From Nemertoderma westbladi (Eukaryota; Animalia; Xenacoelomorpha), in contig JAUCBJ010007107.1 in assembly GCA_032718475.1 (NCBI GenBank), positions 1 to 64,000 of the forward strand: 64,000 nt of DNA. Reading direction: 5' to 3'. Each line of letters begins with the position of its first letter. Positions within the stretch are counted from its first letter, which is position 1. The notes under the pieces were generated by a model. That model made no database searches, was not told the origin of the DNA, and worked only from the letters and a program-made list of their open reading frames with translations. The translations under genes and the position numbers were made by a program. Of this stretch, positions 3,885-51,039 are shown one piece after another.

Positions 3885-3927
3885 ACCACGCTGATGAGAC
3901 CCAGTAAGGTCGAAACGCGTACGTGGT
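3885..3927 (+). ncRNA. Minimal type I hammerhead ribozyme, copy 3
   Basis: Identical to 3063-3105 (+822). Confidence 0.9.
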
Positions 3928-4295
3928 TTGGAGAGATATGAGATATTAATTTCAAGAAAAATTACGCGATTCCTAAATTTGTACACTACCCGGTTAAAAA
4001 GTACGCATGTGATGGGATTAGTCCTACAATTGCGCCAATAAAAGATAAGTTATTTTCGGTAAAATAAACTTATCATTCGAGGTTAAGACCCCTAGATCCC
4101 TTCCTATAATAAATGTATAATAACAAACACCTCGAAAAATACAGCTTGCCAACACATTGTTACTATCAATAATAAAACATCAGGGGCTAATAAAATGGCA
4201 GCTGGCTTTGAAATTAATACTCCATATCTCAAGAACCTGTGGCCTAGTGGTTGTAGTCTCGGCTTCTACCTCGAGGTCCCAGGTTCGAATCCGAC

Positions 4296-4338
4296 ACCAC
4301 GCTGATGAGACCCAGTAAGGTCGAAACGCGTACGTGGT
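4296..4338 (+). ncRNA. Minimal type I hammerhead ribozyme, copy 4
   Basis: Identical to 3063-3105 (+1233). Confidence 0.9.
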
Positions 4339-4706
4339 TTGGAGAGATATGAGATATTAATTTCAAGAAAAATTACGCGATTCCTAAATTTGTACACTAC
4401 CCGGTTTAAAAGTACGCATGTGATGGGATTAGTCCTACAATTGCGCCAATAAAAGATAAGTTATTTTCGGTAAAATAAACTTATCATTCGAGGTTAAGAC
4501 CCCTAGATCCCTTCCTATAATAAATGTATAATAACAAACACCTCGAAAAATACAGCTTGCCAACACATTGTTACTATCAATAATAAAACATCAGGGGCTA
4601 ATAAAATGGCAGCTGGCTTTGAAATTAATACTCCATATCTCAAGAACCTGTGGCCTAGTGGTTGTAGTCTCGGCTTCTACCTCGAGGTCCCAGGTTCGAA
4701 TCCGAC

Positions 4707-4749
4707 ACCACGCTGATGAGACCCAGTAAGGTCGAAACGCGTACGTGGT
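4707..4749 (+). ncRNA. Minimal type I hammerhead ribozyme, copy 5
   Basis: Identical to 3063-3105 (+1644). Confidence 0.9.
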
Positions 4750-6350
4750 TTGGAGAGATATGAGATATTAATTTCAAGAAAAATTACGCGATTCCTAAAT
4801 TTGTACACTACCCGGTTTAAAAGTACGCATGTGATGGGATTAGTCCTACAATTGCGCCAATAAAAGATAAGTTATTTTCGGTAAAATAAACTTATCATTC
4901 GAGGTTAAGACCCCTAGATCCCTTCCTATAATAAATGTATAATAACAAACACCTCGAAAAATACAGCTTGCCAACACATTGTTACTATCAATACTGTCAT
5001 ATAGGCCTACCGCATAAATCCTGTAACAGTCTGACAGTGCACAGTGTAGGCCTATGGTTTACAGGCTGACAGGTCAGCTCAGCAGGTGTCTGGTGTATGT
5101 ACATGAAGTGCGGTACAGAAAGTAGTTTATGTAGTCAGTAGTACAGTAGTTACTATAATAATAATAATAATAATGCACTCTTTTATTAGGCTAATCATTA
5201 AACATATAAAAATTAATTAAAAGGGAGAACATCACCCAGGTTAGGTTACATGAACACTTACGGGCAACAATTGCACTTACAGACTTACAAATAGGCCTAT
5301 CGTTAAATTAAAAGACTAAAATACATGTTTCTTATATATTGTAAAAATTACTAATCCAAAAATCTACCAAAACTACAATAGGCCCCCTACGCCCTACCCC
5401 TAAGGTAAAAGATCTACTTTTTTTTAACAAGTTCTTAAAAACATTAATATTGCAGTATTGACTGCCATAAACTACGTCTGACTGTCTGACGGTAAATCGT
5501 CATATCGTCTGATCGTTCCATACACTTACTACACCGTCCTGTACACGCGGTTTGAATAGGAATACTTAGTTATCTCTAATCTAGTAAAACGTTTAAAAAG
5601 TTTATAAGAATGTCCTCTATTGCACCGCACCGTATTTCAGTATTTGCAAAATTAAAAAAATTTTTTTGCGGTAGATCAAAAAGTTGATGTAGAATGTTGT
5701 AAGTCATTGCAGCATTGTAAGATCAAAAATATGTCTTCGTACTTCTAAAGGCTGTACGGTAGTTCTAAGATTCTCAGCTCAATTAAATCAATTGTACCAA
5801 AGTGAATGCAGGAATGGGAGAGCTAACTGGAGTACAGTATTCTAGAATACTGGAATAGGTCACACGGGACTTATAGCTGTATAGGCAGTACCGGTAAGAA
5901 TTGCGTTTAAATTCAGAAATTACCAGTACAGCAGTATGAAAACATCTGAATATCATATTAACTATTTATATACGCCTTCTTCACCTGCTCCCTAAAGTAC
6001 TGAAGTATAAGTTAAACTTTAAATCACTACTTATAGTTATACCCAGATCCCTACAAGATGTATCATATCTCAATTTTGAACCACATACTGACATGACATA
6101 GATGGTATTCATTACTGTAATTACAATCTATTCTACGCTACCTGTACTGATATGAAGCACAGAGGTACCGGTACGCTGTCGTTAGTACTGTAGTACCGGT
6201 ACGCTACAGAACTAACTGCTGTACCGGTCAGCCGGTACTTTATTCAGTATTAACCCGTTAAACTGTTAAACGCTACCGTATTAAATACGATTAATCCTAA
6301 ACACAATAATTCCGATACTGATACTAACTCATAAACTGACTATTTTAATA

Positions 6351-9300: not shown

Positions 9301-9353
9301 TTATCGCTAATGTAGGTAAGGTTATTCGAACTTTACAACATTATATTCAATGA
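6351..9353 (+). CDS. WAPL: Wings apart-like (WAPL) cohesin release factor homologue, single exon, 1000 aa
   Basis: Disordered S/K-rich N-terminus with FGF motif (CFGFEDD); C-terminal WAPL domain motifs ELGESQKLKEDLSYLLEGL...TRVLSAVSFATRC...FRLHLRARG, EWFKERLRTFGG, VLGLVLLINLV, HLENSMVAAYTALLLGCL; aataaa near 9400. Confidence 0.9.
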   Translation: MPKSYTSSTGTSQGKLVRNSAASKLFDEAVGFDWITPKDSTRRETRASSKSPEKSSQSSTSSSVFDSPEKQPNVLPTGKGKTAPTAPRNKRKLSAVSPIKSPSKRAKNCGNDNAKQSRLQPETADANESESEIKSSSKLFDEILPTTRKSSGKNKTPTKIDLKAKRRKRTYSSTLLENSTSETGALSVTVSRTSGTCFGFEDDITRPTPGKPRKKVDEHNYGAEVYVSKQKAEDHLYLHAVYEDGERKRDHSYATHSDTKPKYYWREKGKPHSDHTYECEDGVPINHNVALMESNKQLTDKRPQQTDKHPQQTDKRPQQTEKMPQQADRRHKQTDKRSKLVRDEKFKSINDNGNKSLSEEFNDSSDYIEESLDLPETTSVGVYDYSDEFTPTKDSTDIKEQPKTGGEAKRRILCSPRKKVVYNAKSWLSVDGDSPEEPRTPAQRRLVAVPPRTPVQPRLDAVPPTPVISNTTHELRELGESQKLKEDLSYLLEGLQPRHALATRVLSAVSFATRCCDRRFRLHLRARGCLPRVIVALRDSPRYQCMSLCAAAVLFLLVQEGSVDPEVDVRTLALLLQLARVRQRWTGLEDAGSTQSGKAHMRMGQLFKGLLLGDGLMLLGNPSVESASVRVGDLAMEAALTMGLLSGSEWFKERLRTFGGIPLLVDYVQQWTDVVLDADWSDSRGDLDRALLCCTKGLCVVVTVTEGNLANITALLEYGELIGRLAQLAGRCHTALLDDNQSKGDKTLDSNESPQINKAFGDSTTQSKVFSCLQAVLKTLVHLSYDDNELGTHSTLVGQQADLIGMLIDCVLRLPTSIPWVERHDVMVLGLVLLINLVIHSPANRTQVLQPEETQPGCDVIVSLTTLYERYTGLAAEAESETISAIRSTKERMLLKSQRTADNRVTESIKAALRSAQKTADSHLENSMVAAYTALLLGCLVQNDSDYIDLLKSSLPGNSLSGMVERLQWYVEYFESTFKDDYDVIANVGKVIRTLQHYIQ
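7245..7360 (+). repeat. In-frame 21-bp coding repeat (QQTDKRP-like, about 5 copies) in WAPL
   Basis: TDKRPQQTDKHPQQTDKRPQQTEKMPQQADRRHKQTDKR. Confidence 0.8.
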
Positions 9354-10399: not shown

Positions 10400-13300
10400 T
10401 ATTGCGTTAATTCATTTCTCAACCTGTACAGCTCCATCTGAACATTTGTAGGTACAATAATCCATGCGCGAGCCCACCAACCTTTAAAACACACTTAGTT
10501 CTGTTGTTAGTTGTGATTATATTGTATTATTGGTTGTTGTTGTTGTCTATTTTGTATTATAATTTTATGTACATTAAACTGTTTCCGCATAAATGTAAAA
10601 ATTCTGGGTTCCACATTTTGTCGTCTTAGTATTCTTATAGAGGGGATTAAAGCCTCCCACGCCAATTTACTTTAATATGATTCACCTTCCAATTGCGGAA
10701 GACACCTTGGTGTGCGGTATGTAGACGATGGATTATCTCTGCTCGTATCCCTGCAGGAACGACAATTTGGGATCCAAGGTAAACAAGGCCATCCTGTACT
10801 GAATAGTCATTTATATTGTTTTCATAAATACATAATTCCTTTGGGATGTTTTTACCAGATATGCCGATATGCCTCTTATTACTGCATACAAAATAAGTTT
10901 ATAATTGTCATCATGTAATGCAGCATCATATAAAAGCTTGTGGGAAGGATCAATTTCTCTTGTGCTATCAAAAGCAACCCGTTTGACATGCAGGGCAATT
11001 AGCAACCTGTTTGACATGCAGGGCAATTTCATCTGCTTGCTTAACATCTTCAGTTGCGGGTTTAGAAACGGGACACCCATAAAGTGTGTCAGCAAAAGTG
11101 TTTTTCTTCCCAGGAATCCATTCCGCAGTGAAATTGCAGCCACTTAAGCTTTTCTTTTAATTTCTGGAGACGTAAGTTCTCAATATAATTTATAGATCGA
11201 AGTGGTTTGTGGTTGGTTCTAATCAGAGAAGTTTGGACTCCCTTGTAAGTAAACCCGGGGTTTCTTTACTGCCCAAACGACTGCCAAGAGCTCGAGTTCA
11301 ACTACTTCCCAGTTGGCTTGGGAAGTTGGATGTAGTGAAATGGCTTCCACATATGTTGAAAATAGGGTGAATTGATTTGTGAGTCCCAGAAACGAGTTAA
11401 GTTCTGTTATGTTTCGTGGGATTTGAATATCGTGAATTACCCAAGTTTTTCCGGATCCCCTTTGATGCCATCTCATCCGATCCTAAGTCCAACAAACTGT
11501 ACTTCTGGACGTCCAAAGATAAATTTCTCCTTACTGAGGGTGATCCCGTACTTACGGCATTTACCTTGTGATGTTCCTCAAATGTAACGGTGTGTACCAA
11601 TATATGATCTACAATTTTTCCAATGTTATCTATTCCTGTCCTTGCTAAATCTCCCCAGACGTAAAAATTTATACGGTGCGATGTAATAAGGGTTGTTAGA
11701 GCCTGGCAGCCTGGATGTAGTGGGATATGTCAGTATCCCTTAACTGCATCAAGAGATGAGAATAAATTGCAGCCTGGCGATATATTTTCGATAATATCTG
11801 CGGGACAAACATAGGGATAAACAAACAGGCCTCTCAACATATTCGTTAAGGCGGGAATATTCTAACCCCTCCACGTGGTTTTTCCACAACTACCATTGGT
11901 GATACCCAGGGTGAAGGGGGATCACCCAGCTCTATCTTTTGTATGATTCCAAGTTGCAACATGCGGTCTAATTCTAACTTTGTTACAGTTTCAAGGGGAA
12001 GTTGTACCTTTCGTGTAGTGTAGATCTTGAAAGGTTGTGTCCCTTGCTTTAGAATGATTTCCATTGGAGGTATGTTCATTGGTTTAAATATACTTGTATT
12101 GAAAACATCAGAAAATTCCTCGATGACCAGATTTCTGGCAGTGTCAATACTAGATACTTCATCAATGATGATATTTTGTGGTACTGGGCATATTTAGTGA
12201 TAAACAGGTGTGCCAGGGTAATATGAAAGTGGATCCTATTTTGGAAACTGGCCTGAATATTAACGGATGAGTTATAATATTGAACTGTTAATTAATTGAA
12301 TTGTACCACACGATTCAATGATTTGGCAATTTGCTTCATATATTTGATGGATAATTTATTGTACAGTAATCTCAATATTTCGTTCTACATTATGAGTAGT
12401 GAGGAGGGAAAATAGTATGCTGGCAGCGTCAGCACCAGTGTCTTGTAGTGCAGTGACTGTAAAATTGTATATAGTGTATAGTAATATAGTGAAGGTACAC
12501 TTGCTGACAACCAACTTTTCTGGCAACCAACTCATGGAAAGCGTAGTCGTGGACGACCGGCCATAACATATATAGATCAACTTGAAAGGGATACTGAACG
12601 AAATTGAAAATTGAGAAACGAAATTGCGACAACTATGGAGAATCGGGAAGCCTGGAAGGATCTCATTTCCACTGTCCGAGTTCGCTCGACCTAGTAGTAG
12701 TACAGTAGTACACTTGCTGAATGCCTGAAGATTTACACACTGGTGAGAAATGACCTGATTTTCTACACTTATTTCATGTCCTGTTTCGGGCGGGACATTG
12801 CAAACGATTGGATGGCCTCATGTGATACAGCAGATTAGAAATTAATATTTGTGCTTGCAGAGGTCCTGTGAAACAGCTGTTTCATTAGTTAGTTATATGG
12901 TGGGAATTGATGTTTATGTCAGAGGATATTGCATTTGTTTCAGTTTCTCCTTTTTCATGAGTAATGCACACTGTTCGCACATCCTTTAAATTAAATTTTT
13001 TATTTAGGGAGAGCAAAAAGTTTTTTTTGAAGCTCCTTGTCACAAATACCAGAACAAATTTGAGTAGTTAGTGTCTCCTCAGCGCAAGGGCAACCTGAAC
13101 TCGGCTCAGTGACCTCTTGTAGACTTATAATCCTGTCAAAAAATTATTCAAATGATTCTCCTTCAGCCTGGAAACTCTTACTAAAAGGGACACGACGGCG
13201 TATGAGGCTCATTTTCTCAGCGTAGTACAATTGAAGAACATCTAATGTTTCTTCGACAGATTTGTTAGTATTCTCAGTGAGGCCCATGTGATCCTCATTT

Positions 13301-14200
13301 TAGTGAGCATGTCTGTTGAAATACATGACCGTAATTGTGCAACTTGGCTGCTTTGGTCAACTTGATCAAGATGATTGGAAGTGTAACAATCATTACATTT
13401 AGCACGCCAATAACGGAATGTCGCAAGTGTCAGTGAACTAACCAGTGCATTTGGTTGGCATGAACGGTCAATGCGGTGATTTGTCGCCATTCGGAAAATT
13501 CCAGGAGCACTAGGATGCGGAATTTCAGGGCCTTGGATCGCCTAATATTGCGACCTTAGCTTTTCATGGTCGCGCTCAAGGAAAAACACCTCATTTGAAA
13601 ATGTGTCAATGCGTGACACAGCCAAGTCATCTGGTGCAGGTTGTTCAATTATTGTTACCAAATCGTTCTGATCGACGATTTGGAGAGCGCATCTTTAAAG
13701 CCACTGAGCATGCGTGCTAGCATGTCAAAATCCAAAATGTCGAGATTTTCAGCGGGAACTGCCATAAGGCATTAATTGTGTTTTGAAACGAATTTTAGCC
13801 TTGTTGGTTCGACCAAAAAAAACAGCTCTCGGGAAACTTTGGCAGTTTTAAGAGCATCAGGATCGACCTTTTGTGCCATTATTGGTTTTGATTTTACTGT
13901 GTATACTCTTACAAGGTTTGTGGAGAGGTCCCGCTTCATTATGATGAAAAACATAAGAAAATGCGTAGTTTAACTAAACTACTCGCATCGCCATGTTCGG
14001 TGACCCCCCAGGCAGTCAACGAACTTAGATAAATGTAAATCAATATTAAATAAAGCAACTAACAACGTTTAATAATAATGATAATGATAATATATTCACT
14101 TTAGAATTGACAATATATCAACCCACAACCAAACAGTGAAACAGTGACCAGATGATTGGTTGCACTACTGAATAAGTTTAACCAGCTGAGACTGTGTATA
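10400..14200 (-). mobile_element. Decayed Ty3/Gypsy LTR retrotransposon (gag-PR-RT-RH-IN fragments); boundaries approximate
   Basis: Minus-strand fragments: protease LQDTGADA (about 12430-12450), RT LELDRMLQLGIIQKI...PWVSPMVVVEKPRGGVRI (11846-12079), RNase H ELELLAVVWAVKK (11219-11476), GSQIVVP near 10770; LTR end ...aaca followed by TGG-type PBS tggcgatgcgag at 13993-13982. Confidence 0.8.
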
Positions 14201-21023: not shown

Positions 21024-21950
21024 GGGCGTTGAAAGATTGCAAGAAGTATCGCTTGCTGAAGGCCATTTATTATATTTAATAGATACATAAAATTCTAGAA
21101 TGAGTTATTTATTTTGGTGGTTGCTTAGCTAATCATACATAAACAAAATGTTCCAGAACATTGTGTATAATTTTTTTAAATAGAATAACTGGCCCTCAGC
21201 GAACGATACTTCTAGCAATCTTTGAACGCCCGTATCTCAGCTGTTTCTAAACGAAATTCAACAAAAATCGAATTGCATTTTGGAATCCTTGCAAAGCAAG
21301 CTTTCTAATGGTATGAAAAATTCACTAATGATTATCAATGAGATTAATTAATGTGAAGTATGGCGACAATAGGAGATGTGCAATTTCGCAAAAGACACTT
21401 TTTTAAAACGCATATTAAACAAATTTACAGGCAAAATCGAAAATGCCGGCTTCATGTGGAAATCGACGGTGAGTGGAACTAGTTGTTCAAGTAATATGAT
21501 AAAGTACGGAAGCCCATAACGGCCATGTCGCGCGCAAACTTCCATGTCAAGCGCGCAAACTTTATGCCATTTCCGTGTAGAAACATTTGCGCGCGCGACA
21601 TGGAAGTTTGCGCGCGCGACGTGTAAGTTTGCGCGCGCGACATGGAAGTCGCGCGCGCAAACTCTCATGTCGCGCGCGCAAACTTTCATGTCGCGCGCGC
21701 AAACTTCCATGTCGAGCGCGCAAATATTTCTACACGGAAATGGCATAAAGTTTGCGCGCTTGACATGGAAGTTTGCGCGCGACATGGCCGTTATGGGCTT
21801 CCGTAATAAAGACTAGTAGAAAAAGTTTGGGGGGGGGGGTGTGAAAATGACAATATATTACGGGCCACGTTGTAATTGTTAGGGAAAATAAGGTTAGTTT
21901 CAACAGGAAAAGGCTACTAGGAAAAGTTATATGGAGAGAGTATTGGGTGG
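21024..21950. mobile_element. Dispersed non-autonomous repeat (left part), interrupted by a MITE and by the BEL/Pao element; continues at 41042-41220
   Basis: 21213-21950 plus 41042-41220 is colinear with the uninterrupted copy at 62417-63058; internal inverted repeat at about 21024-21064 / 21191-21231. Confidence 0.75.
21505..21805. mobile_element. Palindromic MITE, IS3EU-like (TAC...GTA termini, 6-bp TSD)
   Basis: tacggaagcccataacggccatgtcgcgcgcaaact / agtttgcgcgcgacatggccgttatgggcttccgta; TSD ataaag 21499-21504 and 21806-21811; empty site atgataaagactag at about 62703-62716. Confidence 0.85.
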
Positions 21951-24153
21951 TGTTACGGTATATGGCGCTGTATCCACAGTATTAGTCCATTATGCAGTAT
22001 GCAGTATTAGTCCATTATGCAGTATGCAGTATTAGTCCATTATGCAGTATGCAGTATTAGTCCGTTATACTGTACGTAATATTAGTCCGTTGTGCAGTAT
22101 AATTATTTAGATAAGGCGCAGTGTGGTGACATTTAGGTAAGGAAGTTAAAACGCCCATATATTTTGCATCCATTCATTTTGTATAGTATGTAGCCCTACC
22201 TACGTAATTTTGTATTAGGATATATGTAGATAGTTCCAGGGTAGCGAGTTTACTCGGACCCTGGATTTTGTGCTTGCTGATATTAGTTTGATAGGGCTAG
22301 CATATAGGGACGCTGTCCTGGCCATTCAGCAGCCAGAGACGTGATCCATTACCATATATGGTAATAATTTGAGGGCATAGGGCTACAATCCGGTCTCCTT
22401 ATTGGATTAACTGCTTCCAGGTTGGTTTAATGCTAGCATGGACTGGAGAGCCAATGGGAGAGCGATTGAGTCACCTTATTGCATCACCCCATCCGGATCA
22501 CCTATAAATTGGCGGTGTGCCGGTAGGGCCTTTTGTTGTTCATATGTTCATGCCTTATCACATGACACACCCCTGTTACAATTTACTTGCTGAGCTGTCT
22601 CTAATTTTGTATTAGGATATCGTATTTCTGCAATTTGCTAATTCTGATTAATTTCTTGGAATGATTTGCTATTACGATTACTTTGCTTGTGTTTCTCAAT
22701 AATTCCTTCGATTACTGCAAATTACAATCGAACTATGATTTCTACCTTTGATTGATGGTTCTATGTGATTCTTTTCTGCGCAATAATCCCAAGGGATTCC
22801 TGAGACTGTCAGACTTTGTGATTTGCATGCGCCGCTACGGTAGCTATTAGCATCATGGAGGGCTAAGGTGCCAGTGGGCGGTGGGCGCATCGGGGGGTTG
22901 AGCAACTAGGAGAGAGCGGAGGATTCAAGGCGGGCAACGCTGGCCAGGGTCACCGTTGCGGGCGGGTATCTTGCACTGCGGCACGCAGACCGATCGCCGG
23001 TACAGTATCTAGGGGGCTGATGATCCAGGTTTTGTCTCTATTTAGTATTAGGGGGGCAGGAATTGGGTTAGTTAGGAATCCTAGATGTACCCGGGAGAGG
23101 CCTGCGCGTATTATAACGTTGAGTGTGGAGTACGAGTAGTGAATTGCACAATTGTAAACTGTGATTTCTAACGCTGATTGGTGTGTTATTGAAGTGTGCC
23201 TAAGATTACGAATGCTTAGATAGGCGCTCTTTTCCTTTGATTGATTTCTATTTCTTAGTTACAATAATTAGTTATTGATTAGGTCAAAGTAATACGGCAA
23301 TTTAGGCTATTACTAGCGAAACCTGTTGCGTGATAAATTAGAATTACGTATTCTGGAACTCTTAGTAATTAGTACGCTGTTAAATATTTGTGACTGTAAT
23401 TAATTAGTAAAAAAATTAAGAATTAGTACGCAGCATAGCGGAGAGTAGCTAAGGTAATAATTAGTGTACTGTAAACTATTCACGCTGAGCGGTTATTTGC
23501 ATTAGCGGGCAATCAGCTAGAACGCACTATTCGGTACGCACGATACGCTAGTAATTTTGCTGGCCTAAAGCCAGTCGGGGGCAGTTTTAGACCCGGAGTG
23601 GTACTATCCACGTAGAAACAGATACTGTACCATTTTGATATTTTAAATATTCTCGCATTCACACATTACGTTAGGGAACCTCCAGTATTCGCGATTAGAA
23701 AGACGTAGGTAATAGCGTGCTTTAATAGTGATAGAATTAGGCGTAAGAATACTCTGAGTGCAAGGCCTCTCGCACTCGTCTTAAGTAAGCTTAGGGAGCC
23801 GACTCGGGTTTACTGTTTTGGTTATTCCTGCGTGGCTCATAGATTCGAACAGTTAGCTCTCTATCGAGCAATCGGTAGAGAAAGGAACAAGCGATTTTGC
23901 AGGAGTTGTGTAAATTTAGTAAAATATATTAGCGGACGGCAGATTAGCGCCATCTAACGGTAAGTAGCAGTTTGTATTTAGCAACCCTTACAATTTAGTA
24001 ATATCACGCTCCTGAGCCCCTTTACTTAACAGTAGAGCAGTCTTTGTGTCTTATTGGTTAGACGAGAACTTATTAGGTTGGCAGAAGGATATTAACGGGT
24101 ATTGGTCTGTTCAACAGTTCTGCTGTTAGTATAGAGGTCGCGGTTGTTTATCA
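21951..24153 (+). repeat. 5' LTR of element 1 (2203 bp), with 25-bp tandem repeats cagtattagtccattatgcagtatg near its start
   Basis: tgttacggta...tttatca; near-identical to 38834-41036 (4 substitutions seen by eye). Confidence 0.97.
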
Positions 24154-24197
24154 GTAATACGCGCTTTGTTTGCTGTAGGCTGTAGCGTACAGTAAAT

Positions 24198-24482
24198 AGA
24201 GTATTCTTAGGCTGTTAATTTAGATCACTGATACTTCGTATCAGTAATACGCGGTTTGTTTTGCTGTACTGCGTACAGTAAATACGAATTAGATTACTGT
24301 ATTAGGTACTGTACTGCGTACGGTGAGACAGAGAGTATTCTTAGGCTGTTAATTTAGATCACTGATACTTCGTATCAGTAATACGCGTTTTGTTTTGCTG
24401 TACTGCGTACTGTAAATACGAATTAGATTACTGTATTAGGTACTGTACTGCGTACGGTGAGACAGAGAGTATTCTTAGGCTG
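24198..24482 (+). repeat. 134-bp tandem duplication in the leader of element 1
   Basis: agagtattcttaggctg... recurs with period 134; each unit contains tatcagtaatacgcg (24239, 24373). Confidence 0.85.
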
Positions 24483-25616
24483 ATTAGTAGTATCACAGTA
24501 TTAAGTAATAAGTTGGAGCACGTGATCGTCTGCTGTAGGCTATAGGCTAGCGTACAGTAAGACATTGAGTTTATTCTATTAGGTTGTTAGTTTAGATTAC
24601 TGTATTCACTGGCTGCGTACAATAGTACAGTAGTACATTAGGCTGATTGTTGTTACTGCGTACGGTAGAAGGGACATTTGTTTTGCCGTACCACACACAG
24701 TATCATTAGGCTGTTAGGTTGGTGTACTGTTTTACTTACTGTACTGCATACAGTGAATGTACGGTAGTGCGTTTTTACTAATTGCGAATACAGCAGTTCC
24801 TTAGGCCTTAGGGCAAACAGTAATTAGTAAGTTTTTTGAAAATTTTAGCTAGGTTTGCGAGAATTCAGTTTTCGGTCAAAATTATTTTGTAAAATTCTAG
24901 AGTTTTGTACCGGTATGTTAGGTAACCGCTTAGTTATTTTATACCATCTGGAGATATATGGCAAGACGGAACTTCTGAGTTTGGGGTTCGTGTGGGTCTG
25001 CGGGTTCGGTTTGCAATCAGCGAAGGGCCTGAATCTTTGGACGCGGACGTGGAATCTCACAGCAAACAAGGTTGGTTGTTCTGTTGGCACCAGTGTGTTT
25101 GTGGAAGCAGTAAAAAATTACCGGTTGTTTAACTGCGAAGCTGAACTCAATTTATTAGTTAGGATATTTAGGTTTAGCCGGCCATGGTTTTTTGAATCGC
25201 TCAAGTTAGAGAGAGAGTTAGAGAGAGTCGCAACCCGAAGATGTAGCCACGCGCTAGTGGATACATATAATATTTGAAACTAAAATTACGTTGATTAGAG
25301 CTATATATATAAAATTAGAAATATTCGGGTGGCAAGTATATTTTGAATATTTTGTATTAGATTCAGAGTTATTTTGTGCTATACCGGTATTTAATGCTAT
25401 ATAATAGCTATATAATAATATTTTGTTTAAATATTGTGCTAGTATTTGCTATAACTATATACCCCATTAAATTCACAATATTGCATTGCGAATTTATTTT
25501 GACATTTGGACCAACTGATTATTTGACAAATAATTTGACCGTATTTCGGTTAAATTATAATTATATCTCGAACTTTGCGAGATATTTTTGCCGGAAGGCA
25601 AAATATTATTTAGACT

Positions 25617-28600
25617 ATGAGTGTCTCAGACAAAGAGGCACTAGAGGACAGCTATGAGACGGCGGCTGGACCGCCGACTGACGATAGCGTAAATATTACT
25701 GTTGATGACAATGCCGACTATGACGACGCAGCGAGCGACGCTGACGTAAGTGAACAGGAGGACGAGACAGTGACTAGTGAGGAAGAACAGCAGCCTCATG
25801 TAATAGTATTAGGATCCCCTACCGCTACTGTAAGGAAGGATTGTACAGCAACCCAACCAGAGGTGAGTGATAGGGAGGGTAGTGTAGCAGAAGCGAGAGC
25901 CCGGAGCCCGGTTTCCAGACCTGTGGGTATGGTAAGTGCCGTGGTCCCGACGGCTGTTAGGAGTACCCGTAGTTTCCGAAATAATCCTTCAAGTCCACCA
26001 AGTGTGAGTCAGGTAAGCGAGAGAGAACTTGATATCGCGATAAAGAAGAAACTTCGCGCGCATGCCGGACATATAACTCGGACGGCGGACAAGGTAAGGA
26101 AGATGTTAGCTGACCCAGCGAACATCGGGAGGGTAGAATTAGTAGAGATTAGAAGAGGATATAACTCAGCGTTATTCAAGCAGACGGAGGAGCTTGCAGT
26201 CCTAGCGAAGAAGGCAGTAGAGTCTCAGTCGAGCGACGTAGCAACGAGGATTTACGACAGGGTTTTAGCAGCCTTGTTAGAGCACCGCGAGTTATCGGAG
26301 CGATTCCGGCGAGTTAGGACGGAGAACTGGCTGCTATGGGCATCACAAACGCAGGCGACTCAGGTGAGTGACGCAGAGTTAAGAGACTTAGTGGAGCGGG
26401 AAGAGATCCAAGATAAGGAAGAGCGCCGTTATCAGAGGGAAGTTACTAGCTGGCTGATGCAGAATGGAGTGGTGGTACCAGGCCAGGTGCTACCGACGAC
26501 GGAGAACATTCAACAGAGGACGTTAACTCCACCCGACGATGCATCCAGAGACAGCGGCGATTCCCAGGTTAGTCACGCGCGAGGGAAAGTAATATGTGCT
26601 AGATCCCTTGTTTCTCACAACTCGGCGGAGGAGAGAAGACGCCGACTAGACGAACAGCAGGCGGAAGTTTTGCGTGCACAGGAAGCACGGAAGGAAGCCG
26701 AGCGGGAACGGGAGCGCACACGTAAGTTGGACGCAGAGTTACGAGAGTTGGAAGAGATAAGTAAGCGCGAGCGAGCGGAACGCGAGCAAAGGGAACGTGA
26801 ACTCCAAGCCGAGCGCGAGCGCGAGGAACTCGAATGCGAACAGAGAGAACGCGAACTCCAACTTGAATGCGAACGGGAAGCGAAGAAACGCGAACTCCAA
26901 CTCGAACGCGAACAGGAAGCGAAGAAACGCGAACTCCAAGCCGAACGCAAGCGCAAGAAACTCGATCGTGAACAGAAGGAGCGCGAGCTTCAACTCGAAT
27001 GCGGACGCAAGGAACGCGAACTCGAGATCGAGAAAAGAAGACGCGCATTGTATGAAGAAAAGGCGCGAGTGGAAGAAGAGAGCGCAGCGAGACGAGCGAG
27101 GGAAGAAGAAGAGCGTAAACTGGCGCAGTTGGAAAGTGCGAGATTAAGTTTAGAGAGCGAAGAACGGACTAGGAAGGCGAACGAAATCGCCGAGAAGGGG
27201 ATGCGAATGCTCGAAGAATGTGGGGCGAGTGTGGGGACAGAGTTGCGAGAACTGTTCGCACTGCAGAAGGCCGAACAGGAAGCGAGAACTCCGACTATAC
27301 GCGAGTCAACGACGACCAGAATTCCTATACCCGGTCCAGCTATTACGAGTACACGGATCGTTAAACCGTTCTCTACATATCGCACGCCAGTTGGTATTAG
27401 TGCTTCACCTATCGCCCAGGATCTACGTCATCGGAACGCCGCACCACTGTATACCGAACGTGACAACGGAGAATTTAGAGAAGAAACTCCAACGGGACGA
27501 GTATTTGGCGAACCGAACCCGCGGGTTTGGAATACGCGGACGGAGCGCCGACCCAGTTCGACGGAGAACTTCCGGGTTAAACCGGAAGAGGGATCATATG
27601 AGAGACAGCGGATTACTCAGATAGAGCCGACTATACAACAGAACCCTAGCCAGGAATTTATTACGAGGGATGAGTTAAGTGCTAGTTTAGCGCAAGCTAT
27701 ATCGCCGCACATCCAACCTATAACGGACATGCTTAGCAACCTACGGTTAAAGGAAGCAGCCCAGGTAAGAAGTAATTCTAATCCTAGCAGGCCTGAGTTA
27801 GATAAAGTCCAGCCTAGTCAACGAGTACGCATATCGGAGGAGACTATACCACATAGACCTCAGGTAAGGACGCCTGTCCCGAATATCCATAATCCCAATT
27901 TCGAAAATTCGGCAGAAAGATTTATTGAGGAAGCTTGGGTCAGGGCCTCGGCGCGCAAACCATCGCGAGTGCTAAGGACTGACACCGAGTCAAGCGATGA
28001 AGAGGAAGACATGAGACGTCAGAAGTCCCGAAACTATAAGGAAAGAAGGACGGACGCGGAGCAGGTAAGTTGGAACCACCGGGAAAGGACCAGACTTAAC
28101 AACCCTGCGGAACTAAACCATTTGTTAACCCGGAACGACGCAACCCTTAGGGACATAGGTAAGTTTGCTGCTAGGCAAGGACTGCCGACGCAGCAACCCC
28201 AGAAGTTTATGGGTAACCATAAACATTGGAGGACCTTCAAAACCTATGTCGACGAGCAGCTAACCAACAGCACCTTTACTCCCAACGAAAAGTTCAACTA
28301 TTTGCTTCAGATGCTCCATCGAGAACCTAGAGCCATTGCTGATAACTTCGTCGGCAATGAACGGGCATTCGAATTAGCGATGAAGACGCTTAGCGACATC
28401 TACGGGAATAAAACGAAGATGGCGCAGTCGATAGTAGAAGACTTGGGTAAGGGCGGAAGGATTACAACTCCGTTAGAGCTGTTGAACTTAGCGAACGCTA
28501 TTTCGAACGCATTGGACATCTTGAGGACGGTGAATCTACCTCATCATGGTGATCACGCCGAAGTTTTGAAAAGCGTAATAAGACGTTTAAACATGCGTTA

Positions 28601-34055: not shown

Positions 34056-34819
34056 TGTTGGACGCAACTCACTTCGTATGCATTCCTCGTATGCAAATAC
34101 AAGGAAATGCATAGGAGCGGGGTTGTGGTGATTTGCGTTGAGTTTTGTCTGGTGGGTATCAAAACAAAATTTTATTTTCAAAAATTTTGGAAAATTTAAA
34201 ATTTTTAAAAAATTAGAAGTGAACCCAAGACAATTCCAGACGCTGTGTATAGACGCGTTTTAGAATTCGTCTATAGATAAACAGTAATTTGAAAAGTCGT
34301 GAAGCCTGGAAAATAGCATTTAGAAACCATGGTGACGGCTATATTACGTAGGAGTGTAAATTGAGTTTAGCAACTTCCACAGATTGGTGCCAACAGTGCA
34401 ACTAAGGTGCTAAAGGTTAGTAGCACCAGAGGGGTGCACGGACCCCACTCAGTAGTTTGCAGGATGTGTGATGTTCGATTATCAAACCTGTGGGTTTGGT
34501 ATAGTCGAGTATTGTGGCTATAGTCCTTTCTAACTACTGTAGTTTAGTACGAGTAATGGGAGTAGTTTGGGCATCAAAAAGTGAGTTGGTCACGGCCAGT
34601 TTATCTCCAAAGTTTTTGCGCTATGCATGGGAATAGGTTAGAGGATAGTTAGTTAGGAAGAGACGGGATCTAGAGAGTCGAACCTGAACTGCTGGAAGGC
34701 GGGGGGGGGGGGGGTTCGGGAGGTCTGTCCTTCGGCGACATCTAACTGATTTACCCACAGTGTAGTTGGTTACGTAACGGCACTTATTGGGATATATATA
34801 TGTATATACGCGTAACATA

Positions 34820-37800
34820 ATGGAGAGGGATATTAGAGCGCAACCGCGCAGAGGATTTACTGCCAGAGAGGAGGCGGAGCTACCATTCGCGCGACCAGGA
34901 TGTAAAGACTCTAACGTTTACTACCATGGGCGGTCCGTGATGGAGCTGAACGGGAAGTATAAACCAAGTTATGATAAAGAATTACGGAGAGAAAGAATGA
35001 GAGCGTTGGGGGACCGGATGGAAGTCTTGCGGAGAGAGTATCGCACGCGGTATCCCTACGACTTTGCTTTGGACGTGTGCGACATTAGCGCAGATCCGGA
35101 CGAGGAAATCGCACGACTATACCATATGAATATGTATTTACGACACGAGGAGCCTCTACCTGCAGTCCGAGACCAGTTCGACGGAATGCACCTGTATCGG
35201 AAGACTCGAGGCGAGGATCAGGAGACGCCGAAAGTCTTCAGCGTATACAAGCTCTTCTACAAGTGTGGTGAATGCATGAATAAACAGGACGTGGCGATTC
35301 CCGACCGATTAGACGAGCAACATCCGGAACCGATATTAACGCGATGTCCAGCTCACCAATTCCTTAGATACAACGAGGGAGGTTACCCGATGAGCAACCC
35401 GATGATCAGTATCGACTTCAGCGGAAAGCGACCTCCGAGACCCATTACGCCGACCGTTACGACATTAGATCCGTATACGGAGATTAAACCCTGTTCGACA
35501 CCCAGTTTGATAGAGACGGCAGCAGCCATTTCGCTGTACCGAGCCTACAAGGATCTAGAGGCGCGGCGCGAAGCGGCGCGGGACTCGGGTACCAAACCCG
35601 TGGGTTTGGAGCTCTCGAGTCCCTGGACTGCGTTTACTTCACCTCACCGAGTGAGAAGCCTCACACCTGAGCATCAGGACGACATAGACGCGTTGCGGCA
35701 GGAGGAGCGAGCGGCGAAGGCGAAAGAGTTATTTGAGAACAGGATAGCGGAGTATAATAAGACCGCGGATAGACATCAAGAGGAGACGAGGAGAGTGACC
35801 GGATTTGTTCCACAGGTCGTATCTCAACCCGGACCGGTGTGTTATTCCGACGGCACCGAACCTGCGATATTAGTAGATCATCCGGAGTCGCGAGAAGCGA
35901 TACGATTCTTGCCGATGGTAAGAATGGCGGACCATTGGAATGTTGACTGTCTACGGGAAGTTTTATGCGCGAAGTTCTTGCGTGATGTCCCAATGCAGAT
36001 CACAGATTACGACACTTTGTACAAGATTGGAGCTCCGGGGAAGGAGAGTAAGTTATTCGGATGGTTGGATAAGTACATCAAGGTATGGGTCGCGGTGGCT
36101 ACATTCCCAGATGACGAGGAGGTAGACCAGACGTGGCTGAGGAGGAAGGGTTCTTATACCCGATATGATGACCACAAGGCTATTGAGCGCATGTGGACCC
36201 CATCAGATGAGATTCAGCGTCAGTGGAGGAAAACGGAGGAATCACTGCAGGATTGGAGAGTGATGTTCTACGACAATGAAGGAGGGTCCCATCAGGAATG
36301 CTTGACTAGCAAGTGTATTCAAATTCGTGCGGCCGATGGTGTGACTCATGTGTTTATGCGTGTGAGGGCGGATCGAGAGAGACCGGAGCCCATCATAACG
36401 ACACAATATCGGAAGGGGAAGGATCCTAGGGAACAGATTTTGGAGGTATGCAGGCGAGGAGGTATGCACGGAGCGGAGCGTATCGACGCCAGGATGTTAC
36501 CCAAGAAAGCTAGAGAGGCTATTCTCAACCAAGATTACGTCAAGGTGGGATCGGGAGTCCAGAGCGATTTGGAGAGCGACTTCAACGCCATGACTGATCT
36601 GGAAGATAGATTGCCGAGACCGTTTGTCGACACCAAGCTATTGTTGCTATGGGCACAGGATATTGGAATTTATAGGGAGTATCCCAACTCTGCCAAGACT
36701 GGTATGGGCTTTATAGCACACTTGTTGTATAATTGGGACTTTAAGTTAAAGACGCAGAAGAAGTACGAGGAGGCGTATGGTGAATACAACACGCCACCGG
36801 GAGCGGAGTTCAAATCCCACTTCAAGCGGCAAGCGTTAGTGTATTGGAACATTTGCGCGCCACCCCGTGCGTCGCTACAATATTATTTGGTGCTTGAGTC
36901 GAACACGGTGACTTGTTTATTAGCGGATATCGTTGCGCGAGTTTTGAAGCGTCATCCATTGGTATTCGGAGGAGATCAATACGTTCGCTCGAAAGGGGGA
37001 ATCCAATCCGACGTGATGAAGCGTTTCTTAACCCCGTTCTTCAACCAATCGTTAGAGAATACGTCGATGGTAAGGAGAGGATTAGCGATATTCGAAGGAG
37101 TATATCGACAGAACATCGGAGATTTGGGAGACCGACCGTCGATGGAATATCCGACGCCAGAAGCTTTGGAGAAGTGGTTCAGGAATCAAACCCGCGGGTT
37201 TGGTACTCCCTTCCACTCGGAGGCTGATAGACCTGTTAAGGAGGGCTGGCCGGAAACGTTAGTAGAGGTGTTCGGAGTAGATCTTCCGGTGGAGAAGACA
37301 TATCCGAAACGAACGCGGGAGGAAATATTGGAGATAGAGGACAAGGGCGAGGATGTTTACTTTGTTCCGGATCGACAACCGTTGACCGGAGAGGACGACA
37401 TCGTATTAGACATTGGGAAGGAAGGAAGTGCGAAACCGATTGGAGACCTCATATACGAGAGGGCCTGGTTTCCACAAGCGCGTAGGTGCAAATTGTGCGG
37501 CAGCACAAGGCACAATCTAAAGTCGTGCGACGCGGTAGTAGAGGCGGCGCATAAGGTCTGTCGTTGGTGTAATGAGACCGACCATTCGTTTCACACGTGC
37601 ACCGTCTTCATTTCTCAATGTGGATATTGTGGAGTAAAGGGACATCGTAGCGCGAGATGTCAGCTGCGAGATGATTCCTTTCAAAACCATAGCGCTAACC
37701 TACTTCGGGAGATGTTAGATAAGTGGGAGAGTGTGGCGGATTACCATATTCAAGCGCAGATGCGTTGGTTACCATTTAAAGCGGGATATGGGTTTTGGGC

Positions 37801-38527
37801 GGTAGACCCATCGCATGTTGCGTACGAGCCATATCTACAATCGCTACCACAATATCAGGAGCTCATCCTAACTGCTCAAGACCTTCCACAGAACACTGGA
37901 GTTATCGTAGTCCGAGAATACTTCAGACAATTGAACATGGACAATAAGTACACATGGAACTTCGTTGCTATTTGCGATCGCATCACGAAGGGTGTATTTA
38001 CGGAGACTAGAAAAGTGGTACGCGCGCGAGGTGATTGGAGGATGGCGGCTATACAATACCGCAACGAATTCTTGTTGACTCATGTGCCAGTGGGTTCATT
38101 GACCGCCGAGAGGATACAGGAACAAAGGATCGCAGCGACCACAGCGACGACCGCTGGAGCTCAAGGCTCGCGGAAAGAACGAGGAGGAGGGGTCCAAGAC
38201 AAGCGTCAAGTCAAGGACGACCACTACCACTCCATTATAGAAGCTCAACGGTTGCAGCGCAAGGCGCAGGGGGCGTCTGAGAAAGCGCGTGTGCAACTGC
38301 AGAAGGAAGAGTTGGCGGAAGCGACCACGGGAGCGCGACAATTGGGACGAGGCCGAGGGAGAAGTTCAAGCCGAGAATCTGTCGGGGCTCAGGGAACGTC
38401 GTCGCCGGTTCCGGGGAGTGACGCCTCACGGACGCCGTCAACGGAGTCGACTAGAGGTAGATTAGTGTATCTGGGAAGGGGACGAAAGAGAGGAGCGAGC
38501 CCAAAGAACCCAGGAGCGGGTCGATAA
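34820..38527 (+). CDS. Accessory ORF2 of element 1 (1235 aa from first ATG); three CCHC zinc knuckles, basic RG-rich tail; function unknown
   Basis: Uninterrupted 3.7-kb ORF between pol and the 3' LTR; CKLCGSTRHNLKSC, CRWCNETDHSFHTC, CGYCGVKGHRSARC; no signal peptide or TM segment evident. Confidence 0.88.
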   Translation: MERDIRAQPRRGFTAREEAELPFARPGCKDSNVYYHGRSVMELNGKYKPSYDKELRRERMRALGDRMEVLRREYRTRYPYDFALDVCDISADPDEEIARLYHMNMYLRHEEPLPAVRDQFDGMHLYRKTRGEDQETPKVFSVYKLFYKCGECMNKQDVAIPDRLDEQHPEPILTRCPAHQFLRYNEGGYPMSNPMISIDFSGKRPPRPITPTVTTLDPYTEIKPCSTPSLIETAAAISLYRAYKDLEARREAARDSGTKPVGLELSSPWTAFTSPHRVRSLTPEHQDDIDALRQEERAAKAKELFENRIAEYNKTADRHQEETRRVTGFVPQVVSQPGPVCYSDGTEPAILVDHPESREAIRFLPMVRMADHWNVDCLREVLCAKFLRDVPMQITDYDTLYKIGAPGKESKLFGWLDKYIKVWVAVATFPDDEEVDQTWLRRKGSYTRYDDHKAIERMWTPSDEIQRQWRKTEESLQDWRVMFYDNEGGSHQECLTSKCIQIRAADGVTHVFMRVRADRERPEPIITTQYRKGKDPREQILEVCRRGGMHGAERIDARMLPKKAREAILNQDYVKVGSGVQSDLESDFNAMTDLEDRLPRPFVDTKLLLLWAQDIGIYREYPNSAKTGMGFIAHLLYNWDFKLKTQKKYEEAYGEYNTPPGAEFKSHFKRQALVYWNICAPPRASLQYYLVLESNTVTCLLADIVARVLKRHPLVFGGDQYVRSKGGIQSDVMKRFLTPFFNQSLENTSMVRRGLAIFEGVYRQNIGDLGDRPSMEYPTPEALEKWFRNQTRGFGTPFHSEADRPVKEGWPETLVEVFGVDLPVEKTYPKRTREEILEIEDKGEDVYFVPDRQPLTGEDDIVLDIGKEGSAKPIGDLIYERAWFPQARRCKLCGSTRHNLKSCDAVVEAAHKVCRWCNETDHSFHTCTVFISQCGYCGVKGHRSARCQLRDDSFQNHSANLLREMLDKWESVADYHIQAQMRWLPFKAGYGFWAVDPSHVAYEPYLQSLPQYQELILTAQDLPQNTGVIVVREYFRQLNMDNKYTWNFVAICDRITKGVFTETRKVVRARGDWRMAAIQYRNEFLLTHVPVGSLTAERIQEQRIAATTATTAGAQGSRKERGGGVQDKRQVKDDHYHSIIEAQRLQRKAQGASEKARVQLQKEELAEATTGARQLGRGRGRSSSRESVGAQGTSSPVPGSDASRTPSTESTRGRLVYLGRGRKRGASPKNPGAGR

Positions 38528-38833
38528 TACATTATGGCACAGGGCGACAGACTCTAGATATATACATCATCGTCGCTCTGATTAAGAATGAACGAGAAAC
38601 AATATTTTGTAAATTTAATTTGTATGTAATAATCGTTAAACAGTGAGAGAGATAATATTTTTGTAAATTTAATTTGTATGTAATTCATTATGCAATATCT
38701 ATGGCAATATTTGTAAATAGTAGAATTATTATGTTATTTAGATTGGTTGGAAGAAATTTATTTTGTTTTGTATACATCACCTTATACTCTTCTACAATTG
38801 GAGGGAAACATTGTATGATTTCCCTTGGAGCGG

Positions 38834-41036
38834 TGTTACGGTATATGGCGCTGTATCCACAGTATTAGTCCATTATGCAGTATGCAGTATTAGTCCATTA
38901 TGCAGTATGCAGTATTAGTCCATTATGCAGTATGCAGTATTAGTCCGTTATACTGTACGTAATATTAGTCCGTTGTGCAGTATAATTATTTAGATAAGGC
39001 GCAGTGTGGTGACATTTAGGTAAGGAAGTTAAAACGCCCATATATTTTGCATCCATTCATTTTGTATAGTATGTAGCCCTACCTACGTAATTTTGTATTA
39101 GGATATATGTAGATAGTTCCAGGGTAGCGAGTTTACTCGGACCCTGGATTTTGTGCTTGCTGATATTAGTTTGATAGGGCTAGCATATAGGGACGCTGTC
39201 CTGGCAATTCAGCAGCCAGAGACGTGATCCATTACCATATATGGTAATAATTTGAGGGCATAGGGCTACAATCCGGTCTCCTTATTGGATTAACTGCTTC
39301 CAGGTTGGTTTAATGCTAGCATGGACTGGAGAGCCAATGGGAGAGCGATTGAGTCACCTTATTGCATCACCCCATCCGGATCACCTATAAATTGGCGGTG
39401 TGCCGGTAGGGCCTTTTGTTGTTCATATGTTCATGCCTTATCACATGACACACCCCTGTTACAATTTACTTGCTGAGCTGTCTCTAATTTTGTATTAGGA
39501 TATCGTATTTCTGCAATTTGCTAATTTTGATTAATTTCTTGGAATGATTTGCTATTACGATTACTTTGCTTGTGTTTCTCAATAATTCCTTCGATTACTG
39601 CAAATTACAATCGAACTATGATTTCTACCTTTGATTGATGGTTCTATGTGATTCTTTTCTGCGCAATAATCCCAAGGGATTCCTGAGACTGTCAGACTTT
39701 GTGATTTGCATGCGCCGCTACGGTAGCTATTAGCATCATGGAGGGCTAAGGTGCCAGTGGGCGGTGGGCGCATCGGGGGGTTGAGCGACTAGGAGAGAGC
39801 GGAGGATTCAAGGCGGGCAACGCTGGCCAGGGTCACCGTTGCGGGCGGGTATCTTGCACTGCGGCACGCAGACCGATCGCCGGTACAGTATCTAGGGGGC
39901 TGATGATCCAGGTTTTGTCTCTATTTAGTATTAGGGGGGCAGGAATTGGGTTAGTTAGGAATCCTAGATGTACCCGGGAGAGGCCTGCGCGTATTATAAC
40001 GTTGAGTGTGGAGTACGAGTAGTGAATTGCACAATTGTAAACTGTGATTTCTAACGCTGATTGGTGTGTTATTGAAGTGTGCCTAAGATTACGAATGCTT
40101 AGATAGGCGCTCTTTTCCTTTGATTGATTTCTATTTCTTAGTTACAATAATTAGTTATTGATTAGGTCAAAGTAATACGGCAATTTAGGCTATTACTAGC
40201 GAAACCTGTTGCGTGATAAATTAGAATTACGTATTCTGGAACTCTTAGTAATTAGTACGCTGTTAAATATTTGTGACTGTAATTAATTAGTAAAAAAATT
40301 AAGAATTAGTACGCAGCATAGCGGAGAGTAGCTAAGGTAATAATTAGTGTACTGTAAACTATTCACGCTGAGCGGTTATTTGCATTAGCGGGCAATCAGC
40401 TAGAACGCACTATTCGGTACGCACGATACGCTAGTAATTTTGCTGGCCTAAAGCCAGTCGCGGGCAGTTTTAGACCCGGAGTGGTACTATCCACGTAGAA
40501 ACAGATACTGTACCATTTTGATATTTTAAATATTCTCGCATTCACACATTACGTTAGGGAACCTCCAGTATTCGCGATTAGAAAGACGTAGGTAATAGCG
40601 TGCTTTAATAGTGATAGAATTAGGCGTAAGAATACTCTGAGTGCAAGGCCTCTCGCACTCGTCTTAAGTAAGCTTAGGGAGCCGACTCGGGTTTACTGTT
40701 TTGGTTATTCCTGCGTGGCTCATAGATTCGAACAGTTAGCTCTCTATCGAGCAATCGGTAGAGAAAGGAACAAGCGATTTTGCAGGAGTTGTGTAAATTT
40801 AGTAAAATATATTAGCGGACGGCAGATTAGCGCCATCTAACGGTAAGTAGCAGTTTGTATTTAGCAACCCTTACAATTTAGTAATATCACGCTCCTGAGC
40901 CCCTTTACTTAACAGTAGAGCAGTCTTTGTGTCTTATTGGTTAGACGAGAACTTATTAGGTTGGCAGAAGGATATTAACGGGTATTGGTCTGTTCAACAG
41001 TTCTGCTGTTAGTATAGAGGTCGCGGTTGTTTATCA
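38834..41036 (+). repeat. 3' LTR of element 1
   Basis: Matches 21951-24153; preceded by ttggagcgg, followed by TSD ggtgg. Confidence 0.97.
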
Positions 41037-49551: not shown

Positions 49552-50759
49552 TGTAAAAGCTTTTGCGGGATATAACTGGCCCTTTTGCTTCGCAATCCAG
49601 TTTCCCTTAATGCGCTCAAATACTCTAAAGAAAAACTCCCTAACTCAAAGGATGAAAGCTACCGGCTGATTGGCTGATTTGCCTAGCGACGGCCTCTTTG
49701 TTGGGTTCGATCAACCAACCAGAGCAAGGTCAACCAAGCAGAGCGATTCAGCCTTATGTTGGCTAAATCAATGTAATTGGCTGCAAAGGCTAGGGTGGTT
49801 TGGCATTTTAGACGATTTGGAACCTGTGGAATATGGAACTCTGCCAATGAGAGCTTTTCCTTTCTGTGTTGAAATCTACCTGCAGCAGCTCACAGGGTTC
49901 AGTGTGTTGGTTTTCCTGATGCCATGAACATCGGCCATGGAATTATTCTGAATTATTCCAACATTAGAACGTCTTTAATTATAAGATCACATAACTGTTA
50001 TCGGTACTACGGTACATGACCAGCACTGGACAGCGTGAGGACCGGTACGGTACCTGCTGCTGTATTGCACATTATTTACTGCTATTTGCTGTTTGTTATT
50101 AAATGTATCATTCGTTTGCATATTGTTATTTGGAGAATAACTATAAACGATCAGAAACCCCGATCTTCTTGATACACTAAGGTTAGAGAGACCGGCTACA
50201 TATAGCAATTGCGGCTTATATTATCGTGGTTTGTAGTGTGTAGTGAATTGAATGCTATTTTATAGGCCCTACAAATGCCGGTTGCTATTCTCTTTATATA
50301 TGATTAAAATCAGTGACTATCGGCAATTCAGTGTGCAGCGGTGTGCAATAGTCTGTATGTGCTTGTCCGCGTAACAAAGCATCTCCTAAAGAATGCGTCT
50401 TATGTGTAACTTATAATCCATTCGTTGTGTTTAGTGTAAGCCATAGCTCTGTTTATATAGATAGAGCGCCACGTCCTAAAGGAACTGCTAATATTTCCCG
50501 AAAGTGAATAATATTTGTCAGAGATTATATATTAACGATCAATCGAATAGTACGGTAGGCCTGCACCGCAATCAAATTAAAGCATCCGAATCCAGTCTCC
50601 CGGGTATATCCAGCGGGTGAATGGTCGCGCATAGACTGGCTTCGGCTAATGTTGGATTTATTTGTGTCAAATACTTGTCATAGGCTAAAGTCGATTTATA
50701 ACCTAGAAGACATATAGATTTGGCGGGTTAAACTGCCAAAGGTCTTAAAAGCGCGAACA
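49552..50759 (+). repeat. Middle LTR of element 2 (5' LTR of the longer unit)
   Basis: tgtaaaagc...gcgcgaaca, preceded by tgggagcgg; appears identical to 60110-61317. Confidence 0.95.
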
Positions 50760-51039
50760 GTAACAGTTATAGCTTCTTGATTGCGGCGTAAGCAATCAAG
50801 TTGATAGTACCGGTCGACCGGTAACCAGTAGGCCTGACTGCCTGATCATCCGGACCGGTACTTACTTACAGTACAGGTACAGCAGTATTATTTCGAGTGT
50901 GATATATTGTATATTGTAGGCTGTTAGGGGATTAGGGATTGATCACCCCTTATTCCTTTGCATGGTTTACTTATTTCTGTCAGTTTTATTTACTAGTAGG
51001 CTAATATTGAGCAAAAGACGTGTAAACCTGCTCAGATTG

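Follow-up and report, generated by a model that had tools for sequence, protein, structure and literature searches.

Probable tRNA-independent self-priming in a BEL/Pao retrotransposon lineage, with the primer match split by an LTR intron in many relatives

The window, that is the whole stretch of 64,000 nucleotides of Nemertoderma westbladi DNA that was analysed, carries a young BEL/Pao retrotransposon of 19,086 nt (element 1), whose features are collected in Table 1 together with those of a second element (element 2). The LTRs of element 1 are direct repeats with TG...CA ends and a target-site duplication. The repeat hit by element 1 is also present as an intact copy at 62414-63057, which matches 21206-21950 plus 41037-41260, and near 62850 this uninterrupted target copy corresponds to the empty site of element 1. 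The GGTGG duplication and the empty target copy place the LTR end at 24153 on grounds separate from the primer-binding site (PBS). An alternative reading, in which the LTR end is moved and the target duplication has 4 bp, was rejected, as TG...CA with 5 bp fits the empty site.

Table 1. Coordinates of the features of elements 1 and 2 in the window
Feature	Positions	Strand	Basis or remark
Left target-site duplication of element 1, GGTGG	21946..21950	+	right copy 41037-41041
Element 1 5' LTR, 2203 nt, TG...CA	21951..24153	+	99.8% identity with 3' LTR, 4 mismatches
Probable promoter: CCAAT box (22451) and TATAAAT (22503)	22451..22510	+	motif scan, predicted
Predicted self-primer segment of element 1, complement of PBS	23104..23114	+	3' LTR copy 39987-39997
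Non-tRNA PBS adjoining the 5' LTR of element 1	24154..24164	+	sequence reading; first TGG at +361
Two 134-nt repeats with copies of the LTR-end/PBS junction	24198..24465	+	PBS copies at 24244 and 24378, 10/11 nt
gag-pol open frame, 2813 aa	25614..34055	+	Pfam and motifs in translation
Extra ORF, 1249 aa, three zinc-knuckle-like motifs	34778..38527	+	possible 3'-5' exonuclease-like domain, lead only
Short tract rich in purines upstream of the 3' LTR, terminal GGAGCGG shared with element 2	38822..38833	+	
Element 1 3' LTR, 2203 nt	38834..41036	+	LTR pair comparison
Element 2 full LTR, 1208 nt	49552..50759	+	other copies 46790-47919 (truncated) and 60110-61317; target duplication ACTTT
Element 2 predicted self-primer segment	49991..50001	+	10 Watson-Crick pairs and one G-U
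Element 2 non-tRNA PBS	50760..50770	+	6/11 positions differ from element 1 PBS

The gag-pol frame of element 1 encodes, in this order, a DUF1759 Gag, three zinc knuckles, a protease, an RT (YMDD), a Peptidase_A17/RNase H region, an integrase and DUF5641, which is the PR-RT-RH-IN order with the accessory domains of BEL/Pao elements. Pfam recognised DUF1759, Peptidase_A17, Integrase_H2C2 and DUF5641 (E 7e-39 to 9e-5), and the protease, YMDD and integrase motifs are visible in the translation. With the RT-RNase H region, 127 BEL-type homologues were retrieved (best 43%), the named ones belonging to cnidarians, molluscs, echinoderms, crustaceans, insects and fish. Element 1 was filed as BEL/Pao because of this Pol ancestry and not because of its primer type. 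Its marine invertebrate neighbours suggest the Sailor lineage (Sinbad, Sparrow, Surcouf), in trees that do not include those references.

The extra ORF downstream of gag-pol is not env-like. It gave no Pfam match, a word search returned no homologue, its PDB matches look spurious and a single-sequence structure model was unusable (pLDDT 33). Concerning its middle region, the Atlas proposed a DNA_pol_A_exo1 plus zf-CCHC cluster with a score of 0.82, which we take as a lead only, and one homologue, P0123, is common to the zinc-knuckle and the middle regions. DEDDy-type extra ORFs occur in rotifer LTR elements, according to the available part of PMC5408684.

Elsewhere in the window, an ORF of 1022 aa without introns, which has a WAPL domain (E 8e-29) and a 21-nt repeat, lies at 6285-9353 on the plus strand, and decayed Gypsy-like pol fragments occupy about 10800-14000 on the minus strand. 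The normal TGG PBS ascribed to this decayed Gypsy by the initial annotation is a putative one, several CA-N-TGG candidates being present on the minus strand. A 411-nt unit is repeated in near-perfect tandem more than five times at 2796-4993, and a piece related to it, partly inverted, is present at 44502-44707.

The mature 3' end of a tRNA is CCA. The initial annotation had noted that no TGG follows the 5' LTR of element 1, that the LTR contains, at 23104-23113, the exact reverse complement of 24155-24164, and that T23114 can form a G-U pair with G24154; all three observations were borne out and the coordinates hold, the first TGG being found at +361. The resulting helix has 10 Watson-Crick pairs and one G-U pair at offset 0 from the LTR end. 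It is uninterrupted and needs no intron, and a splice-junction match beating the contiguous one was not found in this element (best 8 bp). When the LTR was dinucleotide-shuffled, at least 10 bp were reached at offset 0-1 in 9 of 1000 cases and at offset 0-5 in 19 of 1000, while internal pseudo-PBS controls reached the match in 2 of 300. Taken alone, the match is suggestive, being unlikely by chance yet not decisive, and it is modest because the 2.2-kb LTR also pairs over 10 bp with two of ten foreign PBS, both from one family.

A bulged, G-U rich duplex between the first 20 post-LTR nucleotides and a presumed U3 stretch was discarded as a candidate since it is not at the PBS start; its energy is -18.0 kcal/mol, compared with -15.2 kcal/mol for the 11-bp site alone. 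In a cis equilibrium fold over the 1.04-kb loop of element 1 the probability of the helix is about 0. Contigs of run X1, whose RNA origin is a guess, cover parts of the LTR and include neither the site nor the PBS, and no joint was seen in them. A PBS-like stretch of 8 nt is present inside the LTR at 23289, and in the repeats at 24198-24465 an 8-bp hairpin covers each repeated LTR-end/PBS junction. Were the downstream PBS copies used, the LTR might grow longer with time.

Element 2 is a deleted BEL/Pao element with Gag, protease and RNase H pieces 27-49% like those of element 1; no RT or integrase match was found in it. Its LTR end (61317/50759) is set by the ACTTT target duplication. The PBS has changed at 6 of 11 positions with respect to element 1 and all of them are still paired with its own LTR; none of 300 pseudo-PBS controls reached the observed match. 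In the outer LTR the primer copy (47229-47239) forms 11 Watson-Crick pairs with the PBS. The cis fold over the loop of 0.76 kb gave a helix probability of 0.02.

The arrangement of element 2 (46790-61317, plus strand) is a tandem with three LTR copies, the first of which is truncated, and a 229-aa ORF at 58639-59328 has a duplicate at 48081-48770. The last base of the predicted primer is C at 47239 and T at 50001 and 60559, one of only 4 differences, and both variants pair with the first PBS base. The 3' region weakly resembles the N-terminus of the extra ORF of element 1 (E 0.002). A decayed solo LTR at 42741-43912 on the minus strand, about 72% like the element 2 LTR, keeps the TATAAGA and differs at the predicted primer site.

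Relatives were collected from one metagenome scan, several of them from related host samples, which gave at least 79 loci; 34 of those listed have a terminal repeat. Of these, 22 were analysed; the other 12 were omitted, as either their contig stops within the LTR or their repeat is something other than an LTR. A scan of viral contigs for relatives found none. In 11 loci both LTR copies run past the 3' end, a rule that sets the LTR end independently of the PBS, and with elements 1 and 2 these form a fixed-end set of 13, which L002 and L025, with LTRs ending in TA, joined later. A comparison of PBS-to-LTR complementarity among relatives, proposed by the initial annotation, was run on this set. 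Every non-TGG element (11/11) has a match of 10-15 bp to its own LTR at an offset of 0-3 nt, among the matches listed, and the PBS sequence varies from family to family, while in both TGG elements (L012 and L071, TGG within 6 nt) the self-match is limited to 4-5 bp, so that 0 of 2 show it. L032 and L039 are one family, and the 11 non-TGG elements therefore represent ten families with ten PBS sequences, which share 2-9 of their first 14 nt. The LTRs of different families are unalignable, and "compensation" rests on anchoring at the LTR end.

Several controls bear on this recurrence. For seven non-TGG relatives (without L002 and L025) the observed length appeared in 0-1 of 400 pseudo-PBS draws, and in a swap matrix only 4 of 110 foreign pairs reached 10 bp, 2 of the 4 within one family. 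A further set of 12 loci, in which only the LTR start is fixed, was scanned at all CA positions: a junction match of 10-11 bp was present in 9 of them, and the maximum among 128 swapped pairs was 9 bp. In the same set L074 gave 13 bp with an AAG acceptor, under a rule relaxed afterwards, L025 has a contiguous match instead and no clean self-match was seen in L065. The site of L025 is kept in two LTR copies that are only 74% alike. L052:16-620 has two rival self-matches, one of 11 bp across a splice junction and one contiguous over 14 bp, at different candidate LTR ends. A cruder, unguided scan reached at least 10 bp in 10 of 37 loci and passed over known positives that had a cut LTR or an incorrect ATG anchor. 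Folding of seven short-LTR relatives gave a helix probability of 0.74-0.94 in four and of 0.09 or less in three (L024, L039, L079).

The match is contiguous in five of the 11 non-TGG elements (element 1, element 2, L019, L025, L079). In the other six (L002, L024, L029, L032, L035, L039) it exists only across an exon junction, with a GTAAG...YAG intron of 76-164 nt lying in the LTR, and the predicted primer consists of 4-9 nt of exon 1 and 6-7 nt of exon 2. The expectation of a self-match in relatives is supported; the initial annotation had missed that the predicted primer is intron-split in many of them. In all five intron-bearing relatives that were folded the unspliced half-helix has a probability of 0.0, and in L032 and L035 both LTR copies are near-identical with the intron present.

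Phylogenetic relationships were evaluated with a careful tree of 25 RT-RNase H rows and a quick tree of 76 rows, which showed the same pattern; L032 is missing from both, its RT frame being too short. One clade (98/95) unites element 1 with P0003 and 12 self-matching loci. The branch of element 1 is long, and its forced placement among the TGG loci could not be rejected (p-AU 0.08). L012 and L071 (TGG) and L020 (candidate TGG) fall outside this clade, and so does L052. The closest labelled relative of element 1 is L024. Two pairs of sisters, L019/L015 and L079/L055 (100/100), differ in that the first member is intron-less and the second intron-bearing, which indicates that the intron state changed, in one direction or the other, more than once. 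Complementarity to the own LTR at 0-3 nt from the LTR end recurs with different sequences in one RT clade, and in many relatives it is split by a canonical intron.

The position of the site in the LTR was compared with promoter and poly(A) motifs. A poly(A) signal (AATAAA/ATTAAA) follows the site in 8 of 11 fixed-end elements and precedes it in none (0/11), and a TATA-like box lies upstream in 7 of 11. In four of these its distance from the site is 122-167 nt, in L024 it is 29-31 nt, and in elements 2 (TATAAGA) and 1 it amounts to 11 and 601 nt, respectively. These positions place the site in R for most relatives and do not support a general rule by which the first 11 nt of the transcript are the primer: they speak against it in five of the seven TATA-bearing elements and fit it in L024. 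The initial annotation had predicted, by analogy with Tf1, that transcription of element 1 starts at about 23104. A motif scan found no TATA or initiator near -30 of that position, and the only clear TATA, with a CCAAT box in the probable promoter at 22451-22510, lies 601 nt upstream; the prediction finds no support in this element. The strict Tf1 geometry, with a start at about 23104 and the first 11 nt as primer, is a special case of self-priming, and helices of 10-12 bp in most elements, close to the 11 of Tf1 (PMC7175516, available part), the TATA box of L024 and the sharp end of the helix at 23104 agree with it; given the distances of 122-167 nt in four relatives and 601 nt in element 1, we consider it unlikely.

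Element 1 itself probably primes reverse transcription without a tRNA, from a contiguous site in its R region. Tentatively raised by the initial annotation for a BEL/Pao lineage, this reading is supported by the contrast between non-TGG and TGG relatives, and the only conserved partner that we found for the site at the LTR end is the R RNA of the element itself. Whether the match between site and PBS is maintained by selection or by re-copying of the PBS from the primer, the LTR RNA would be the primer either way. Beyond the complementarity, we infer each of the following steps. The transcription start would precede 23104, its most likely position being some 30 nt downstream of the TATA at 22503, and the segment would thus be in R. 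Positions 23104-23114 would anneal to 24154-24164, in cis with the help of nucleocapsid or from the dimer partner RNA, and a cut just 3' of 23114, analogous to the Tf1 RNase H cut, would free a 3'-OH; that a 3'-5' exonuclease from the extra ORF trims the primer end is speculation. RT would then copy U5 and R back to the cut and jump to the 3' R.

For the relatives with an intron, splicing of the 5' LTR RNA would produce the primer, cDNA synthesis would end after 4-7 nt of exon 2, and the unspliced 3' LTR would serve as template for copying the intron anew. As the cDNA would never enter the 5' intron, the intron could be inherited from the unspliced 3' LTR and hence be kept in both LTRs, while splicing of the 3' LTR copy would give the intron-less form. 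Element 1 has the intron-less state, as do L019 and L079, the sisters of the intron-bearing L015 and L055. Judging from these sequences, it is probable that a large BEL/Pao clade has dropped tRNA priming and lets the spliceosome build its primer at an LTR exon-exon junction, so that only spliced 5' ends prime and the intron survives via the unspliced 3' LTR, with the intron-less elements 1 and 2 carrying the primer ready-made. The splice-built primer would, with comparable probability, apply to the relatives and not to element 1.

It could be argued that a host tRNA half or another small RNA is the primer, and that the LTR match is due to chance in element 1 or has a role in folding, dimerisation or packaging. 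Half-tRNA primers are known from Ty1/copia (PMC6317226, available part); in half-tRNA priming of the Bianca kind the PBS is complementary to a host tRNA cleaved in the anticodon stem. The match of element 1 alone has a p of about 0.01-0.02, the PBS regions of several relatives contain palindromes and the cis helix is not predicted by the fold. However, ten families have ten PBS, each matched by its own LTR, which a conserved host RNA would not track, and the match sets in within 0-3 nt of the LTR end, the point at which minus-strand synthesis has to begin. Moreover, an Rfam scan of 21900-25700 gave two matches only, both at chance level. A host primer appears quite unlikely. A search for tRNAs to compare with the PBS found none in the window and none in the 40 loci scanned of the at least 79 relatives. 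The last alternative, a site in U3, was a caveat of the initial annotation; transcription of the site would then be confined to the 3' LTR, and priming would proceed from a partner RNA or from the RNA's 3' portion. In its favour are the TATA-like stretch at 23109-23116, which overlaps the site of element 1 (the LTR of element 1 also contains no AATAAA/ATTAAA), and the TATAAGA before the element 2 site, which the solo-LTR relative keeps. For the lineage it is unlikely, as the site of relatives lies between the TATA and the poly(A) signal, and a U3 intron in need of splicing would vanish from the cDNA at each cycle whereas the LTRs of L032 and L035 keep it. We regard this alternative as very improbable, less so for elements 1 and 2 themselves.

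Animals contain BEL/Pao elements in abundance, and the priming of these elements is described as tRNA-dependent. If self-priming is true for this lineage, it would be extended to the third LTR superfamily. A splice-made primer would tie retrotransposition to host splicing, would free the element from the tRNA supply and from tRNA-fragment defence, and would account for PBS calls that are missing in annotation pipelines. It should be noted that the self-priming reading gives exact predictions of which sequence primes, where the cut falls and which bases are joined by splicing. The C. elegans BEL/Pao element Cer7 has reportedly been described with a self-encoded primer; if so, self-priming in BEL/Pao would be less new, and the splice-built form would be unaffected. 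We found no report of self-priming or of a splice-built primer in BEL/Pao in the full-text literature searched, subscription papers, Repbase and GyDB aside, including the available parts of PMC3601003, PMC13524379, PMC8220671 and PMC3286476. The main texts of the Sinbad paper (PMC554778), of a BEL/Pao survey (PMC3118150) and of a mollusc survey (PMC6238403) have no mention of PBS or tRNA.

Compared with known systems, element 1 resembles the Belpaoviridae in its single gag-pol frame, its PR-RT-RH-IN order, its BEL Pfam domains and its TG...CA LTRs. The 2021 ICTV description of this family, whose replication is called "poorly understood", gives an 18-nt PBS for either tRNA-Arg or tRNA-Gly, an LTR length of 0.2-1.2 kb and a genome size of 4.2-10 kb (PMC8742986, available part), whereas element 1 has no tRNA PBS, LTRs of 2.2 kb, a length of 19.1 kb and a non-env extra ORF. 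Among other elements, the insect BEL/Pao element Achilles has a tRNA-Tyr PBS (PMC4580426) and Skipper a non-TGG PBS without LTR complement (PMC5006619), as far as the available parts of these papers report. Three primer types are distinguished in the available part of PMC6317226, which assigns self-priming to Tf1/sushi, Tcn1 and TAR; for the TAR/Houba/Osr-1 (Ty1/copia) and Tcn1 (Ty3/gypsy) plant lineages it was likewise predicted from LTR-PBS complementarity. These lineages are not BEL/Pao, and an intron-split primer is not mentioned in that part of the article. The closest parallel concerns Tf1/Tf2 of Schizosaccharomyces pombe, Tj1 and the Tf1/sushi group, which likewise lack a tRNA PBS and have an LTR-derived RNA complement, about 11 nt long, of the sequence adjoining the 5' LTR, as in element 1 (PMC7175516, PMC4600332, available parts); the minus-strand DNA of LTR elements starts at the LTR end (PMC7175516). 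Tf1/sushi belongs to Ty3/gypsy, while the Pol of element 1 is BEL/Pao and not that of a Ty3/gypsy chromovirus; in Tf1 the first 11 transcript nucleotides serve as primer, while that of element 1 appears internal to R, within a loop of 1.04 kb, and in 6 of 11 fixed-end relatives the primer is intron-split. Priming of element 1 is likely to work as in the Tf1 group, without membership of it.
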